64,000 nucleotides of DNA, taken from NCBI GenBank assembly GCA_045643265.1, contig JAZUKK010000026.1, forward strand, positions 9,250 through 73,249. Direction: 5' to 3'. The stretch comes from Elusimicrobiaceae bacterium (GTDB lineage: Bacteria; Elusimicrobiota; Elusimicrobia; Elusimicrobiales; Elusimicrobiaceae). The notes under the pieces were generated by a model. The model searched no databases and had not been told where the DNA came from. It saw nothing but the letters and a program-made list of their open reading frames with translations. Every line of letters starts with the position of its first letter. The first letter of the stretch is position 1. The position numbers and the translations under genes were made by a program. This document shows, piece by piece, positions 56,263 to 61,424 of the stretch.

Positions 56263-56292
56263 AAAAACCCATCCGCAAGGGTGGGTTTTTTT
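56263..56292 (+). terminator. Intrinsic terminator
   Basis: ACCCATCC-gcaa-GGGTGGGT followed by a T-run. Confidence 0.75.
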
Positions 56293-56328
56293 CGTATAAT
56301 AATTGAACCCAAAGGGGAGGAACGTAAA

Positions 56329-57291
56329 ATGAAAAATTGCGAAACGAACGACCGTAAAGTAGCCGTTATCGGCTGTGGGTTTGTAGGAGCCGCGAGCGCG
56401 TTTGCGCTTATGCAAAGCGGACTTTTTAGTGAAATGGTATTACTAGACGCCAACCAAAGCAAGGCAGAGGGCGAAGCCATGGACATTTCCCACGGCGAGG
56501 CCTACGCCCGCCCCATGAAAATTTACGCTGGCACCTATGACGATATCACCGACGCGGCGATTATCATTATTACCGCCGGAGCCAACCAAAAACCGGGCGA
56601 AACGCGTTTAGATTTAGTGCAAAAAAATGTGGGCATTTTCAAAACGATTATCCCGGAAATCAAAAAACGCAATTACAAAGGCATTTTGCTCGTCGTAGCC
56701 AACCCGGTGGATATTCTTACCTATACCGCGCTAAAATTAAGCGGACTACCCGAAAACCGCGTAATCGGTTCGGGTACTGTATTAGACACGGCACGCTTTC
56801 GTGAAATTTTAGGCAACCATTTAGAGGTAGATGCCCGCAGTGTACACGCGTTTATCGTGGGCGAACATGGCGACAGCGAAATTGCCGTTTGGAGTACAGC
56901 CAATGTGGCAGGTGTACCGATACACAAATTTTGCAGTTTGCGCGGATTTCATAATCACGACGAGCAAATGAAAAAAATTGCGGAGGAAGTTAAACAAAGC
57001 GCGTACGAAATTATCAAGCGCAAAAAAGCCACTTACTTCGGTATTGCTATGGCGGTAAAGCGGATATGCGAAGCGATCGTGCGCGACGAAAAATCAGTAC
57101 TGCCCGTTTCTAATTTAATGCACGGCGCGTACGGTATTAACGATATTACATTAAGTATGCCCGCCGTCGTTGGCCGTAACGGGGTGGAACTCCAAATGCC
57201 GATTTCCTTAGACGGCAACGAGGCCTTGGCGTTAAAGGCGTCTGCCGACATGCTAAAAAAAATTGCCAAAGAATCCGGCGTAGAAAATTAA
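56329..57291 (+). CDS. ldh: L-lactate dehydrogenase
   Basis: GCGFVG, GANQKPGETRLDL, ANPVD, LDTAR, GEHGDS and ATYFG motifs. Confidence 0.94.
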   Translation: MKNCETNDRKVAVIGCGFVGAASAFALMQSGLFSEMVLLDANQSKAEGEAMDISHGEAYARPMKIYAGTYDDITDAAIIIITAGANQKPGETRLDLVQKNVGIFKTIIPEIKKRNYKGILLVVANPVDILTYTALKLSGLPENRVIGSGTVLDTARFREILGNHLEVDARSVHAFIVGEHGDSEIAVWSTANVAGVPIHKFCSLRGFHNHDEQMKKIAEEVKQSAYEIIKRKKATYFGIAMAVKRICEAIVRDEKSVLPVSNLMHGAYGINDITLSMPAVVGRNGVELQMPISLDGNEALALKASADMLKKIAKESGVEN

Positions 57292-57453
57292 ATTTATTAG
57301 TGGATATAACCGCTAATTAAAATTAGTATAATAAGTGGGTCAGGCGGTTTTTACTGCCTGGCCTATAATTTATTCTGTTTTTTTGGGAATCTGCAAAGAT
57401 TACGGTTTTGCGATGAGCAAAACAGTACACAAACCAAAAAACAGTCGTTATAA

Positions 57454-57572
57454 AAGCATAAGATAAACGGCCTAATTACCCGATTATTTTATGCTTAATG
57501 TCTGCCGTTTGCAAAAACGGCAGACTACGGCTGTTGTTTTATGCGTTTGTGTACTCATAAAGCAACGGCCGT
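57454..57572 (+). other. Three tandem hairpins in the leader of the methylase operon
   Basis: Stems 57454-57466/57484-57496, 57500-57510/57515-57525 and 57527-57543/57556-57572. TATAAT boxes at 57327 and 57364. Confidence 0.5.
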
Positions 57573-57615
57573 TTTTTATGGCTATATTCCCGAAAACAAA
57601 AAGGGAGTAGGGAAT

Positions 57616-58659
57616 ATGGCAAATCAACGCCTCACCCAAGCACGCAAAAATAAAAGTGATGAGTTTTATACGCAACTGATAGATATTGAAAACGAGTTAA
57701 AACATTACAAAGAACATTTCAAGGGAAAAACCGTTTTTTGTAATTGCGACGACCCCTACGAAAGTAACTTCTTTAAGTATTTTGCCGTCAATTTTAACCA
57801 TTTAGGGCTTAAAAAACTGATTGCCACTTGTTATAACGGCTCGCCTGTCAGCGGTACCCATTTCCCTCTTTTTGAAGAACATAAAGAAATTACAAAAACT
57901 GCCCACAAGATTGTCATTACCGAAGTAAAAGACGAAAACAACGACGGAGCAATTGATTTAAGTGATGTGGAACACTTAATTAAAAACAAGAAAAATGTAC
58001 TCACCCAATTAAAAGGGGACGGCGATTTTAGGAGTAAGGAATGTAGCGAATTATTAAAACAAGCCGATATTGTAGTAACTAATCCGCCCTTTAGTTTGTT
58101 TCGGGAATATGTGGCCCAACTGGTGGAATATAATAAAAAGTTTCTCATCATAGGAAATCAAAATGCTATTACCTACAAGGAAATTTTTAAGTTAATTAGA
58201 AATAATCAACTGTGGTTGGGAGCAAGTATTCATAATGGCGATAGAGAATTTATGGTACCTAAAGGATATGATATTTCTAAAAATTGCCGTTATGATGAAA
58301 AAGGAAATAAATATATTCGTGTTAGAGGACCGCGTTGGTTCACAAATTTAGATTATAGAGAACGACACGAAGATTTAGTCTTATACAAAAAATACACACC
58401 GGAAGAATACCCTACCTACGATAATTACGACGCTATCAATGTAAATAAAACCGCTGATATCCCCTACGATTACGACGGCGTTATGGGCGTACCCATCACT
58501 TTTTTAGATAAATACAACCCCAATCAATTTGAAATTTTAGACCTAAATCCGCATTTCTTTACCTTGCAAGAACAAGGACTTCCAAAAATCAAGCAATTAA
58601 CACTTAAAAAAGTGGGGGAAAAGGATCCTTATGCTCGTATTTTAATCAAACGGAGATAA
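57616..58659 (+). CDS. Adenine-specific DNA methyltransferase, EcoRI family
   Basis: DEFYT, VFCNCDDP, GDGDFRS, TNPPFSLFREY and GVMGVPITF motifs. Confidence 0.92.
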   Translation: MANQRLTQARKNKSDEFYTQLIDIENELKHYKEHFKGKTVFCNCDDPYESNFFKYFAVNFNHLGLKKLIATCYNGSPVSGTHFPLFEEHKEITKTAHKIVITEVKDENNDGAIDLSDVEHLIKNKKNVLTQLKGDGDFRSKECSELLKQADIVVTNPPFSLFREYVAQLVEYNKKFLIIGNQNAITYKEIFKLIRNNQLWLGASIHNGDREFMVPKGYDISKNCRYDEKGNKYIRVRGPRWFTNLDYRERHEDLVLYKKYTPEEYPTYDNYDAINVNKTADIPYDYDGVMGVPITFLDKYNPNQFEILDLNPHFFTLQEQGLPKIKQLTLKKVGEKDPYARILIKRR

Positions 58660-58660
58660 T

Positions 58661-59755
58661 ATGCAAATAAAATTACACGAAATCACCATCAAGGACTTAT
58701 TCAACGGATATCGCAATAACGACGAAGAAGGTGTTTTTGGCTATGGCGGGAAATTAAACATCCGCCCGCCCTATCAGCGCGAGTTTATCTACAAGGAACA
58801 ACAACGCGACGAAGTTATCAAAACCGTACAGAAGAATTTTCCGCTTAACATTATGTATTGGTGCGAAAACGACGACGGTACCTTTGAATTGCTAGACGGC
58901 CAGCAACGCACTTTAAGCATTTGCGAATACTGCGCGGGCAATTTTTCCCTAGATTCTAAGTATTTCCACAGTTTAACGCAAGATAAACAAAACGAAATCT
59001 TACAATATAAACTAATGGTCTATATCTGCAAGGGCGAGCAATCGGAAAAATTAGATTGGTTCAAAACTATCAATATCGCCGGGGAAGAATTGACCGACCA
59101 GGAACTGCGCAACGCCATTTATACGGGCCCTTGGCTTAGCGACGCTAAAAAATTATTCAGTAAAACAGGTTGCTTGGCCTATAAGATTGGGAGCAATTAT
59201 TTAAGCGGAGTGGCTATCCGTCAGGACTATTTGGAAACGGCTTTAAGGTGGCTCTGCAACCAAAAGGGCTATGACACGATTGAAGATTACATGAGCAAAA
59301 ATCAATTTGCACCCAACGCTAACGAATTGCGGTTATACTTCCAAAATGTTATATCGTGGGTGGAAACCGTTTTCCCCAAATACCGCAAAGAAATGAAAGG
59401 AATTGAGTGGGGAATTTTATACAACCAATACAAAGACACCCCACAAGACAGTAAAAAGTTAGAAAAAGAAATTTCTACCTTGATGCAAGACGACGACGTA
59501 ACCAACAAAAAGGGTATTTATGCCTACTTGCTAACGCATGACGAAAAACACCTAAATATCCGTGCCTTTAGCCCCAGCATGAAACGGCAAGCATACGAAC
59601 GGCAAAAAGGCATTTGCGCCAAGTGCCATAAGCATTTTGAGTTGGAAGAAATGGAGGCCGACCACATTACTCCTTGGTGTGAGGGGGGCAAGACAAACGC
59701 CGAAAATTGCCAAATGCTCTGCAAGCACGACAACCGCACCAAGTCCGATAAATAA
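58661..59755 (+). CDS. DUF262 (ParB-like, GmrSD/SspE N-domain)-HNH endonuclease fusion
   Basis: RPPYQREF, LLDGQQR, FKTINIAG and ELRNA, then CAKC...EADHITPW..GGKT...NCQMLC..DN. Confidence 0.9.
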   Translation: MQIKLHEITIKDLFNGYRNNDEEGVFGYGGKLNIRPPYQREFIYKEQQRDEVIKTVQKNFPLNIMYWCENDDGTFELLDGQQRTLSICEYCAGNFSLDSKYFHSLTQDKQNEILQYKLMVYICKGEQSEKLDWFKTINIAGEELTDQELRNAIYTGPWLSDAKKLFSKTGCLAYKIGSNYLSGVAIRQDYLETALRWLCNQKGYDTIEDYMSKNQFAPNANELRLYFQNVISWVETVFPKYRKEMKGIEWGILYNQYKDTPQDSKKLEKEISTLMQDDDVTNKKGIYAYLLTHDEKHLNIRAFSPSMKRQAYERQKGICAKCHKHFELEEMEADHITPWCEGGKTNAENCQMLCKHDNRTKSDK

Positions 59756-59783
59756 GGGCTCTAATTCAAAACGCCCTAAATGC

Positions 59784-59896
59784 TGTCATCCCGGACGCAT
59801 TAAATGCTGTCCTCCCCGAGGATTTCTATCGGGGATCTCCTCCTTATAGTTATTCCAAAGCGGTGGGGATTCCCGATTACAACTTTCGGGAATGAC
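59784..59896. repeat. REP-like cluster containing the 89-bp dyad
   Basis: Partial unit at 59784 and a dyad at 59808-59896 matching 14424-14512. Confidence 0.88.
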
Positions 59897-59931
59897 TTTA
59901 TATTATGCCGTTATTACAAATCGGTATGTTT

Positions 59932-60942
59932 TTAGATCTTTTCCAACAGTTTTTGCACCAGACGGGGAACCGCGTACGAAGAAAGAGCCGCTTTTTTTAT
60001 GCGTAAAAACTCCGTCGGCACTTTAGCCGAGGGGGGAAGAACTACCTTATATAACCGTGCCCACAAAATACGGTGCGACAACACATGTTTGACAGGCTCA
60101 CCCACCGTCGTCAATTTAGTACGACCGCACCAAGTCGGTTTTTTGGTAAGCACGCCCCCGCGGGTAGTTTCCACCAGGGGTAATTCATACAAATTTTGCC
60201 AAATATCACCCGCCCCGCGCTTGTGCAGCCACACATACGTCCCTTGCTCTACATATATATAGTGGAAAAACCGCTCGGACACTTTTGGCTTTTGCGCCTT
60301 AACAGGCAATTTCTCTATACAGTTCGTTTTGCGCGCGTGGCACTTTTTAGCAAATGGACACGCCTTACATTGGGGAACTTGCGGGGTGCAGACTAGCGCG
60401 CCAAAGTCCATAATGGCCTGATTAAAATCTCCGGGAGATTTTTTATCCAACAATTTTTGCGCCAAGGCGGTAAACTGTTTTTTCCCGTCGGTAGAGTCAA
60501 TGGGCGTTTCCACGCCAAACACGCGCGACAATACCCGATAGACATTTCCGTCCACCACCGCATAAGGCATATTGTATGCCATGGAACAAATCGCCGCCGC
60601 GGTATAGTCGCCCACGCCCTTTAAGGCGCGCACACCGTCATAAGTAGTGGGGAATTTTCCGTTCATACTCTTGGCGGCCGCATGCAAATTACGCGCGCGC
60701 GAATAATAGCCGAGCCCTTGCCACAGTTTTAAGACGGTATCTTCGTCCGCCGAGGCCAGCGCGGCAGGCGTAGGAAATTTTGCGGCAAATTTCTCGTAAT
60801 ACGAAAGCCCTTGCGAAATGCGCGTCTGCTGAAAAATAATTTCCGACAACCAAATCAAATACGGATTGTGCGTATCACGAAACGGCAAGCTGCGTTTATT
60901 TTTTTGATACCACGCGAGCAAAGTGGGGGAAAAATCTTTCAT
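59932..60942 (-). CDS. mutY: A/G-specific adenine glycosylase
   Basis: WLSEIIFQQT, WQGLGYYSRARNL, GVGDYTA, VDGNV and the Cx6Cx2Cx5C Fe-S motif. Confidence 0.96.
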   Translation of the reverse strand: MKDFSPTLLAWYQKNKRSLPFRDTHNPYLIWLSEIIFQQTRISQGLSYYEKFAAKFPTPAALASADEDTVLKLWQGLGYYSRARNLHAAAKSMNGKFPTTYDGVRALKGVGDYTAAAICSMAYNMPYAVVDGNVYRVLSRVFGVETPIDSTDGKKQFTALAQKLLDKKSPGDFNQAIMDFGALVCTPQVPQCKACPFAKKCHARKTNCIEKLPVKAQKPKVSERFFHYIYVEQGTYVWLHKRGAGDIWQNLYELPLVETTRGGVLTKKPTWCGRTKLTTVGEPVKHVLSHRILWARLYKVVLPPSAKVPTEFLRIKKAALSSYAVPRLVQKLLEKI

Positions 60943-60963
60943 AAACTTATTTTACTACTTTTC

Positions 60964-61108
60964 TACGGGATGACGGCGGGGGAAAGGGCACGACAAAAAA
61001 TAAAACAATGTCATTCCAAACTTGATTTGGAATCTCACCTTGTTGGAGAAAACAACGAGATCCCGGATCAAGTCCGGGATGACAACACTTTGGGGTTACG
61101 GGATGACG
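60964..61108. repeat. REP-like cluster (4 units)
   Basis: Units at 60964-60974 (half), 61009-61035, 61058-61084 (rev) and 61086-61108 (rev). Confidence 0.88.
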
Positions 61109-61424
61109 GCGGGGATTATCTTGTTTGCGCGTTTTTCTTCGCCGCAAAATCGCACCCGATTTTGCAAAATCCGTTTTTATGCTCACGCGGGGGGATAAAA
61201 CCCTTTTTTTTAATAAAATGCGGCAAAAAAATTATCCCCGTTTTTTGCCACACCCGCTAAACCAAAAATCTAAGCCAGATTATTATATTAGATTTTTTAC
61301 CCCATATATCACGCTTATTTTTGACAAACCAAACTCAATTTTTACACGCCTTATTTCTTTTTTCTCGTCTGGAAAATGGCTTTATCCCCAAGTTTTGGCA
61401 TAAAAAGACATAAAACAACATATA

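Follow-up and report, generated by a model that had tools for sequence, protein, structure and literature searches.

A restriction-modification cassette pairing an EcoRI-family methylase with a DUF262-HNH nuclease in an Elusimicrobiaceae genome, and its possible guidance by the methylase

Introduction

The subject of this report is a two-gene cassette located at positions 57616-59755 of a 64,000-nt stretch of DNA from an Elusimicrobiaceae bacterium (the whole stretch is hereafter referred to as the window). The cassette consists of a gene for a DNA methyltransferase (methylase) of the EcoRI family, followed by a gene for a nuclease in which a DUF262 domain is joined to an HNH domain. One of the closest described restriction-modification (R-M) systems is EcoRI itself, with which the cassette shares the methylase family (PF13651; 49% full-length identity, 67-70% in the core). 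It differs from EcoRI in the partner, R.EcoRI being a PD-(D/E)XK enzyme (PF02963), and in two variable segments of the methylase, V2 and V3, which are unrelated to those of M.EcoRI.

The second close system is BanLI of Bifidobacterium animalis subsp. lactis, whose methylase, M.BanLI (41.7 kDa), was aligned to M.EcoRI by O'Connell Motherway et al. (PMC3990576). In E. coli, M.BanLI methylates one strand of the asymmetric sequence RTCAGG, and the gene for R.BanLI (43.5-kDa product) is located directly downstream of the methylase gene (PMC3990576). The cloned pair lowered the plating of P1vir approx. 10-fold (efficiency of plating ~0.1), pre-methylation raised transformation 1.8-fold, and the authors explained the single methylase by the loss of a second one (PMC3990576). 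The R.BanLI gene is annotated as encoding a 'DUF262 domain-containing protein' and is listed in REBASE as Ban8145ORF124P, Type II (PMC13091528, 2026). The evidence on BanLI is genetic and methylomic alone. The EcoRI-like orphan methylase M.MpnI also modifies an asymmetric sequence, CTAT (PMC3536716).

The nuclease has described counterparts in GmrSD, BrxU and SspE, which likewise combine an N-terminal DUF262 domain (ParB/Srx-like, with a DGQQR motif), a helical region and a His-Me-finger nuclease. These proteins are longer (~560-600 amino acids, according to Foldseek target lengths, versus 364 in the window protein) and carry DUF1524 at the C-terminus, whereas the window protein ends in a zinc-ribbon HNH domain. 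GmrSD and BrxU are directed at modified DNA, SspE needs host phosphorothioate marks, and none of them has a cognate methylase (PMC12707154); in contrast, the window nuclease is tied to an N6-methyladenine (m6A) methylase.

Results and Discussion

Identification of the methylase and nuclease genes

The window pair is very probably a genuine R-M cassette of the family described below, and the locus is best explained as a horizontally acquired two-gene unit inserted in the spacer between ldh (56281-57291, + strand) and the convergent mutY gene (59932-60942, − strand). The coordinates of its features are given in Table 1.

The product of the first gene matches PF13651 (EcoRI_methylase) over residues 6-346 of 347 (E 3.9e-148; 493.8 bits, curated cut-off 26.4) and the PADLOC profile MTase_II (PDLC03297) from end to end (E 9.7e-132). 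Its full-length identity to the M.EcoRI adjoining R.EcoRI on an E. coli plasmid is 49.4%. The start codon at 57616 is favoured over an upstream ATG at 57541, since a Shine-Dalgarno-like GGGAG..AGGGA is placed directly ahead of it and the resulting N-terminus aligns with that of M.EcoRI. Motif I (CNCDDP, residues 42-47) and motif IV (TNPPF, residues 155-159) are both invariant in 41-63 homologues, and the motif order (motif I, motif IV, C-terminal variable region) is of the gamma type; as judged from its sequence, this close relative of M.EcoRI has intact catalytic motifs. In the AlphaFold2 (AF2) model (predicted local distance difference test score, pLDDT, 78) the variable segments V1 and V3 are disordered and the pLDDT is low at 78-93. 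Foldseek searches with this model returned generic Rossmann methyltransferases alone (E of at least 9e-3), and V2 and V3 were not placeable on a DNA complex.

The second gene is the restriction component of the locus. Its product matches PF03235 (GmrSD_N/DUF262) at residues 10-154 (E 6e-18; 66 bits, cut-off 33.2), PF01844 (HNH) at residues 319-364 (E 4e-10) and the PADLOC profile REase_II (PDLC03418) at positions 1-364 of 372 (E 1.9e-139). The PADLOC search, which had been suggested as a check, thus matched both genes end to end. Within the HNH domain the catalytic residues and the cysteines C319 and C350 are invariant and C322 and C354 are conserved in at least 90% of homologues; the domain also matches the HNH domain of PDB entry 4h9d (E 5e-4). 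For the nuclease, AF2 gave a model with a pLDDT of 84, whose best Foldseek match is the structure of ParB with cytidine diphosphate (ParB-CDP; 6sdk), with E 1.6e-3 and a template modelling (TM) score of 0.22-0.37. The matches of the N-terminal domain (ParB with cytidine di- or triphosphate, Noc, BrxU, SspE) are coherent but weak, and those of the C-terminal domain (Gme HNH nickase, McrA, Cas9 HNH) are weak as well (E of at least 1.6e-3 in both cases). Regulation of the nuclease by nucleoside triphosphates (NTPs) may be inferred from this homology.

Pfam and Foldseek detected no separate DNA-reading domain in the nuclease, and DUF1524 gave no Pfam match. Neither a helicase-like ATPase nor a PD-(D/E)XK domain was found with Pfam, NCBIfam and Foldseek, the protein consisting of the ParB-like and HNH parts alone. 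No biochemical study of the nuclease came up in the literature searches.

The two co-directional open reading frames (ORFs) are separated by a single nucleotide (TAA-t-ATG); GGAG precedes the second ATG by ~8 nt, and the nuclease is probably translationally coupled to the methylase gene. An operon of this composition and spacing had been read from the letters of the window alone (the sequence-only reading), as had its function, a methylase-plus-nuclease defence pair with DGQQR-bearing ParB-like and HNH domains. The former is borne out by PF13651, PF03235, PF01844 and the junction, and the latter is supported by the sequence, in which the nuclease domain is of the HNH/zinc-finger type.

The usual partner of EcoRI-family methylases

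We examined the partnership in two samples: (i) 80 loci that are the best matches to the window nuclease, a choice which favours nuclease constancy, and (ii) a census of 401 genomes of the host phylum, picked independently of the nuclease. In 77 of the 80 loci a gene for an EcoRI-family methylase precedes that of the nuclease on the same strand, and the remaining three have no upstream room. The loci span Bacteroidota, Spirochaetota, Patescibacteria, Campylobacterota, Pseudomonadota and Bacillota, plus two archaeal groups, and their gene junctions are mostly ATGA overlaps or gaps of under 25 nt. No third gene (controller or second methylase) recurs in the cassette flanks, where no family was found in more than 5 cases. 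The two genes move together, unaccompanied by a third, and a single methylase is the normal state of the cassette, unlike the situation assumed for BanLI, in which a second methylase was thought to have been lost.

The census yielded ~30 strong PF13651 genes, at least 25 of which adjoin a DUF262-HNH nuclease; among the others, one is placed beside an R.EcoRI homologue (genome G226), one is an orphan and two or three are at contig breaks. The pair is present in roughly 8% of the sampled genomes. The sequence-only reading had regarded the window pair as an unusual hybrid in which a DUF262-HNH effector replaces R.EcoRI. This view has to be abandoned, as in both samples M.EcoRI-like methylases are usually paired with DUF262-HNH rather than with R.EcoRI, contrary to the textbook impression. 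M.EcoRI and the G226 methylase are placed, in the methylase tree, inside the DUF262-HNH-partnered clade (99% in the Shimodaira-Hasegawa-like approximate likelihood ratio test), although recombination limits the meaning of this tree.

At least 8000 close homologues of the nuclease exist (~65-70% identity among the matches listed), and the family comprises 520 clusters at 50% identity (E up to 1e-30). The pair is found on plasmids of many genera, under the labels 'DUF262 domain-containing protein' and 'adenine-specific methyltransferase EcoRI family protein', and in a few phages. The window locus is therefore an ordinary copy of a catalogued, widespread family; new here are the link to BanLI, an EcoRI positive control found within the genus, a partner census free of selection for the nuclease, and the fusions described below. 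In one Gracilibacteria metagenome-assembled genome the nuclease gene (L080:1157-2236) has a TGA codon at the family-invariant Gly247 and is open under genetic code 25 alone; this cassette is adapted to a recoded host.

The near-obligate linkage to one methylase family, with genes that overlap or abut, argues against a Type IV (GmrSD/BrxU-like) system, in which the nuclease would be aimed at modified phage DNA and the methylase would serve another purpose. The same is indicated by the C-terminal domain, which is a classical HNH and not DUF1524, and by the increase in transformation upon BanLI pre-methylation (PMC3990576). Despite the Pfam match to GmrSD_N, the weak Foldseek matches to BrxU and SspE and a weak PADLOC match to mREase_IV (E 0.008), we consider a Type IV function highly improbable.

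A divergent PF13651-like subfamily was also observed (G288:C28:97676-98431, G073:C33, G304:C24, G371:C151 and others). Its members match at E ~1e-31 to 1e-37, over profile positions 2-283 alone, are encoded by frames of 400-500 amino acids, and have no DUF262-HNH gene nearby. An apparent combination of a dead methylase with an intact nuclease in genome G223 was rejected, the methylase proving intact by tblastn.

Constant nucleases beside exchanged methylase segments

The methylases are built of a core conserved at 75-97%, which is broken by three indel-rich segments (V1, V2 and V3), while no hypervariable segment was found in the nuclease alignment. Among 63 methylases we distinguished 11 V2 types and 24 V3 types, occurring in 39 V2 × V3 combinations, and on the nuclease tree these correspond to at least 24 changes of V2 and at least 41 of V3. 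The V3 type of the window methylase otherwise occurs in locus L069 alone.

The most telling case is that of two Flavobacterium loci (L029 and L038) with unrelated flanks. Between them the nucleases show 2 differences in 360 residues (99.4% identity; 92-100% at the DNA level), whereas the 3′ half of the methylase gene falls to 54-66% DNA identity and the V2 and V3 segments to 26% and 17% protein identity, respectively. Further pairs of this kind are L035/L047, L035/L068 and L022/L034. The occurrence of nearly unchanged nucleases beside swapped V2 and V3 segments argues that the nuclease does not read the site of the methylase itself, and the enzyme looks blind to sequence.

These pairs bear directly on the possibility of a classical Type II system (IIP or IIS), in which the nuclease itself would recognise the sequence of the methylase and cut independently; HNH domains are indeed used by several Type II enzymes, such as KpnI, Hpy99I and PacI. 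The labels of PADLOC (REase_II, MTase_II) and the REBASE record of the BanLI-type nuclease as Type II with the site RTCAGG (PMC13091528) also speak for it. However, almost identical nucleases are paired with methylases of unrelated V2 and V3, and the nuclease has no variable segment of its own. Moreover, the nuclease is conserved better than the methylase, the reverse of what is known for ordinary Type II pairs. A further difficulty is that BanLI marks an asymmetric site on one strand, so that one of the daughter duplexes has no protection from a simple Type II enzyme (PMC3990576). We therefore regard the classical Type II arrangement as unlikely, though by no means negligible.

In-frame methylase::nuclease fusions were found in three clusters, which are ~42% identical to each other. 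In the first, P0392 (L120:3001-5154), all motifs are intact under translation table 11, and the gene lies behind a small helix-turn-helix gene among Ter-type stress/defence genes (PRTase_2, TRSP, StiP, PELOTA_1, ATPgrasp_Ter). The second, P0278 (L118:2001-4067), has degenerate methylase motifs (CNAGDG, TFPSF) and intact nuclease motifs; its contig is Mollicute-like, with a Lipoprotein_17 neighbour and a code-4 host, and TGA encodes seven Trp residues, the majority at positions that the family conserves. P0393 represents the third cluster. Such fusions are a Rosetta-stone hint that the methylase and the nuclease may form one complex.

A nuclease that stays constant across methylase types would also suit SspE-like sensing, in which the DUF262 domain would read host m6A marks, largely independently of sequence and without a stable methylase complex, since a mark reader is not required to read sequence. 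The m6A signal would either silence the nuclease on self DNA or activate it against foreign DNA. DUF262 enzymes, such as SspE, couple the recognition of a DNA modification to NTP hydrolysis and nicking (PMC13251355, PMC12707154). However, Pfam and Foldseek revealed no recognisable m6A-reader domain in the 364-residue nuclease, and the fusions are more simply explained by a complex, so that we give SspE-like sensing only a small chance.

One further gene product, P0420 (L119:3001-4899), is a 632-residue tandem of two EcoRI-family methylase modules with differing V2 and V3. Its contig resembles that of a phage (NrS1-type polymerase, sigma factor, AAA_24, DUF669) and no nuclease gene adjoins it; the protein could serve a phage as a counter-measure, or could methylate both strands of an asymmetric site.

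Target specificity

A true EcoRI-type pair of the same genus (L116:1136-2979 in G226:C1, located between the genes for alanine racemase and mlaE) served as a positive control. It consists of a gene for an R.EcoRI homologue (PF02963 at E 2e-131; 65% identity to R.EcoRI), directly followed by a gene for a methylase that is 66% identical to M.EcoRI. The two methylases share 73% of V2, 86% of V3 and 61-74% of the core. They are only 22% identical in V1, and this segment therefore does not track specificity. Comparison of the window methylase with M.EcoRI gave a core of 67-70% and V2 and V3 identities of merely 29% and 18%, respectively.

V2 and V3 are thus candidate carriers of target specificity. 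In work of the Reich laboratory, residues Y204 and C223 of M.EcoRI are reported to cross-link to the recognition site. These residues fall in V2, and the numbering fits the sequence. The target of the window methylase is probably not GAATTC, contrary to what the sequence-only reading had implied. A PF02963 scan of the window genome gave no match, but the control genomes were silent in that scan too.

The two GAATTC sites noticed at first sight (16647 and 55067) are correct and are the sole ones in the window, compared with 17.7 ± 4.2 in dinucleotide shuffles, 100 of 100 of which had at least two. In the genome as a whole 75 sites were observed and 272 expected (observed/expected ratio, O/E, 0.28). 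The genome-wide ratio had been proposed as a check on the system, and depletion was indeed found; however, GAATTC is also depleted (O/E 0.53) in genome G003 of the same genus, which has no cassette. The O/E in 692 kb pooled from the 80 carrier genomes is 0.82, which indicates nothing specific, and in the window genome five other palindromes are as depleted as GAATTC or more so, with TCGA, ATTAAT, CATATG and TTTAAA being more depleted. Inference of the target from palindrome avoidance was dropped as uninformative, because GAATTC and many other palindromes are depleted in the cassette-free relative. True EcoRI-type systems in the genus, such as that of G226, could account for the depletion of GAATTC.

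A comparison of the whole window genome (G000) with a 293-kb sample of G003 gave palindrome O/E values of 0.19 versus 0.93 for TCGA, 0.20 versus 0.78 for ATTAAT, 0.25 versus 0.83 for CATATG, 0.26 versus 0.81 for TTTAAA and 0.32 versus 0.85 for AGCT. The stronger depletion in G000 may reflect a lineage-specific past with several other R-M systems.

Relation to BanLI and proposed mode of action

Judging by size, annotation and gene order, it is likely, at a level close to that claimed for the cassette itself, that BanLI is a partly characterised member of the window family. In both cases an EcoRI-like methylase gene is followed by a gene for a DUF262-annotated nuclease and there is a single methylase; the BanLI element is, in addition, integrase-associated. 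In a homologue search with an actinobacterial nuclease the best 120 matches included no Bifidobacterium entry, and the methylase of a B. breve megaplasmid has no DUF262 neighbour. The sequence-only reading had named a characterised Type II system of the same architecture as evidence that would speak against it, and BanLI partly answers to this description (PMC3990576, PMC13091528).

We propose the following mode of action. The methylase would find a short target by means of the swappable loops V2 and V3 and methylate adenines there; as in BanLI, this target may lack symmetry and carry the mark on one strand. Having no sequence specificity of its own, the nuclease would be brought to unmodified targets by the methylase, as an M-R complex, and its ParB-like nucleotide-binding domain would act as a switch, licensing cutting by the HNH domain. 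Were the sites asymmetric and marked on one strand, newly replicated DNA would escape cutting only under a rule of the Type III kind, based on two sites or on their orientation.

The logic of such a system would be that of Type III (EcoP15I) and Type IIG/IIL (MmeI) enzymes, made from unrelated parts: the methylase would hold the sole target-recognition element, the nuclease partner would be nucleotide-dependent, and one-strand methylation of asymmetric sites would be possible. Fused M::R forms are a further point of likeness to Type IIG. What sets the window pair apart is that it has neither a helicase-like ATPase nor a PD-(D/E)XK domain and that its methylase shows the gamma-type motif order, and the likeness in mechanism is wholly one that we infer.

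In our judgement the arguments for and against guidance of the nuclease by the methylase, as opposed to reading of the site by the nuclease itself, are evenly balanced, and the whole explanation, that of a methylase-guided cassette, is given the same middling credence. Several points weigh against it. (i) The choice of the 80 loci as best matches inflates nuclease constancy, although the argument from L029 and L038 is independent of that choice. (ii) The fusions are rare (3 clusters versus hundreds of unfused ones), and one of them has a degenerate methylase domain. (iii) The assignment of specificity to V2 and V3 draws on one positive control and on the reported cross-linking of M.EcoRI. (iv) BanLI was placed in the family by size, annotation and gene order. 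(v) The Foldseek matches are weak for both proteins, and the NTP dependence of the nuclease and its complex with the methylase are predictions, for close homologues as well. (vi) PADLOC and REBASE (the latter according to PMC13091528) file the family as Type II.

The constant nuclease, the shuffled loops, the single methylase and the fusions together suggest that this widespread pair works otherwise than the Type II label implies. More tentatively, and with less than even confidence, we propose that pairs of an EcoRI-family methylase and a DUF262-HNH nuclease have been mis-filed as Type II and form a separate, very widespread R-M class, a functional analogue of Type III. In such a class a sequence-blind ParB-like NTP-switch/HNH nuclease would be aimed by a methylase whose recognition loops are exchanged combinatorially and which would often mark an asymmetric site on one strand; the classical EcoRI system would be a derived offshoot of the same methylase lineage. 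Should the methylase guide the nuclease, specificity would be predictable from the V2 and V3 types alone, the system would be reprogrammable by loop swaps, and restriction of unmodified DNA would become a further role of ParB-type nucleotide switches.

Insertion site and flanking regions

The cassette has a G+C content (GC) of 0.39, compared with a genome mean of 0.47 ± 0.032, and a GC as low as this occurs in just 2.9% of 2140-bp windows of the genome; the AT-richness noticed earlier was thus real. In G003 the site is empty, the ldh stop codon being separated from the mutY stop codon by 64 bp. In genome G004 the same spacer contains a different, 6.5-kb insert (L092:1700-8100 in G004:C15), whose six ORFs (238-480 amino acids) gave no credible Pfam match. 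The ldh-mutY spacer looks like an insertion hotspot, as far as these sequences indicate, and for the window genome the locus is one more mobile R-M cassette placed in it.

Within the genus the cassette is patchily distributed, and its other copies are 44-68% identical to that of the window, which indicates that they were acquired separately. In the relative G012 a truncated nuclease is left, with no methylase. Such patchiness and decay would also be in keeping with the window copy being a selfish or decaying passenger that restricts little or not at all, as would the modest effects of BanLI (~10-fold restriction in E. coli, 1.8-fold in transformation; PMC3990576). However, both frames of the window copy are intact, with all catalytic motifs present, and the nuclease is very strongly conserved across phyla, including recoded hosts (TGA for Gly in code 25 and for Trp in code 4). 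The passenger explanation is accordingly a poor one in our estimate, and a functional R-M cassette is preferred.

Table 1. Coordinates of the cassette, its domains and the adjoining spacers within the window
Feature	Position	Strand	Basis
AT-rich leader, ldh to methylase gene	57292..57615	+	GC 0.364
EcoRI-family (gamma-order) N6-adenine DNA methyltransferase, 347 amino acids	57616..58659	+	PF13651, PADLOC MTase_II
V1, residues 71-130, long variant with EF-hand-like loop DENNDGAIDLSDVEHL	57826..58005	+	alignment
V2, residues 201-240, type V2.3, candidate target-recognition loop	58216..58335	+	alignment
V3, residues 308-340, type V3.7, candidate target-recognition loop	58537..58635	+	alignment
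Nuclease, DUF262 (ParB/Srx-like NTP-binding fold), helical middle region and HNH, 364 amino acids	58661..59755	+	Pfam, PADLOC, AF2
DGQQR motif (D79-R83) of DUF262 domain	58895..58909	+	invariant in 81 homologues
HNH nuclease domain; D334-H335, N349, N358; Cys ligands C319, C322, C350, C354	59615..59752	+	PF01844
Spacer to convergent mutY, largely copies of dispersed genomic repeats	59756..59931	.	14-mer counts

Within V1, residues 105-120 (57928-57975) form an EF-hand/dockerin-like loop, DENNDGAIDLSDVEHL, and similar loops of the form D-x-N-x-D-G-x-I-N/D are present in other V1 types. Its matches in the PDB are the EF-hands of secretagogin, which are weak (E 0.2-0.4).

The leader of the methylase gene includes the ldh terminator hairpin (57335-57366) and a second hairpin (57516-57535), which is preceded by a perfect inverted repeat from ~57500. 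The near-perfect hairpin at 57500-57535 (GTCTGCCGTTTGCAAAAACGGCAGAC) is located 80 nt ahead of the methylase start codon. An Rfam scan of the leader and the cassette, the leader hairpin included, gave no credible family match.

The intergenic spacers around mutY (59756-59931 and 60950-61200) are filled with short dispersed repeats with hairpin potential. A cluster of repetitive extragenic palindromic (REP) elements had been reported downstream of the cassette; pieces of dispersed repeats with many genome copies are indeed present there, and the term REP is roughly right in a loose sense. The 14-mers of the spacer between the nuclease gene and mutY are present 7-24 times each in the genome, where CTGTCATCCCGGA has ~164 copies at up to 2 mismatches and GGGATTCCCGATTACAACTTTCGGGAATGAC has ~26 copies.

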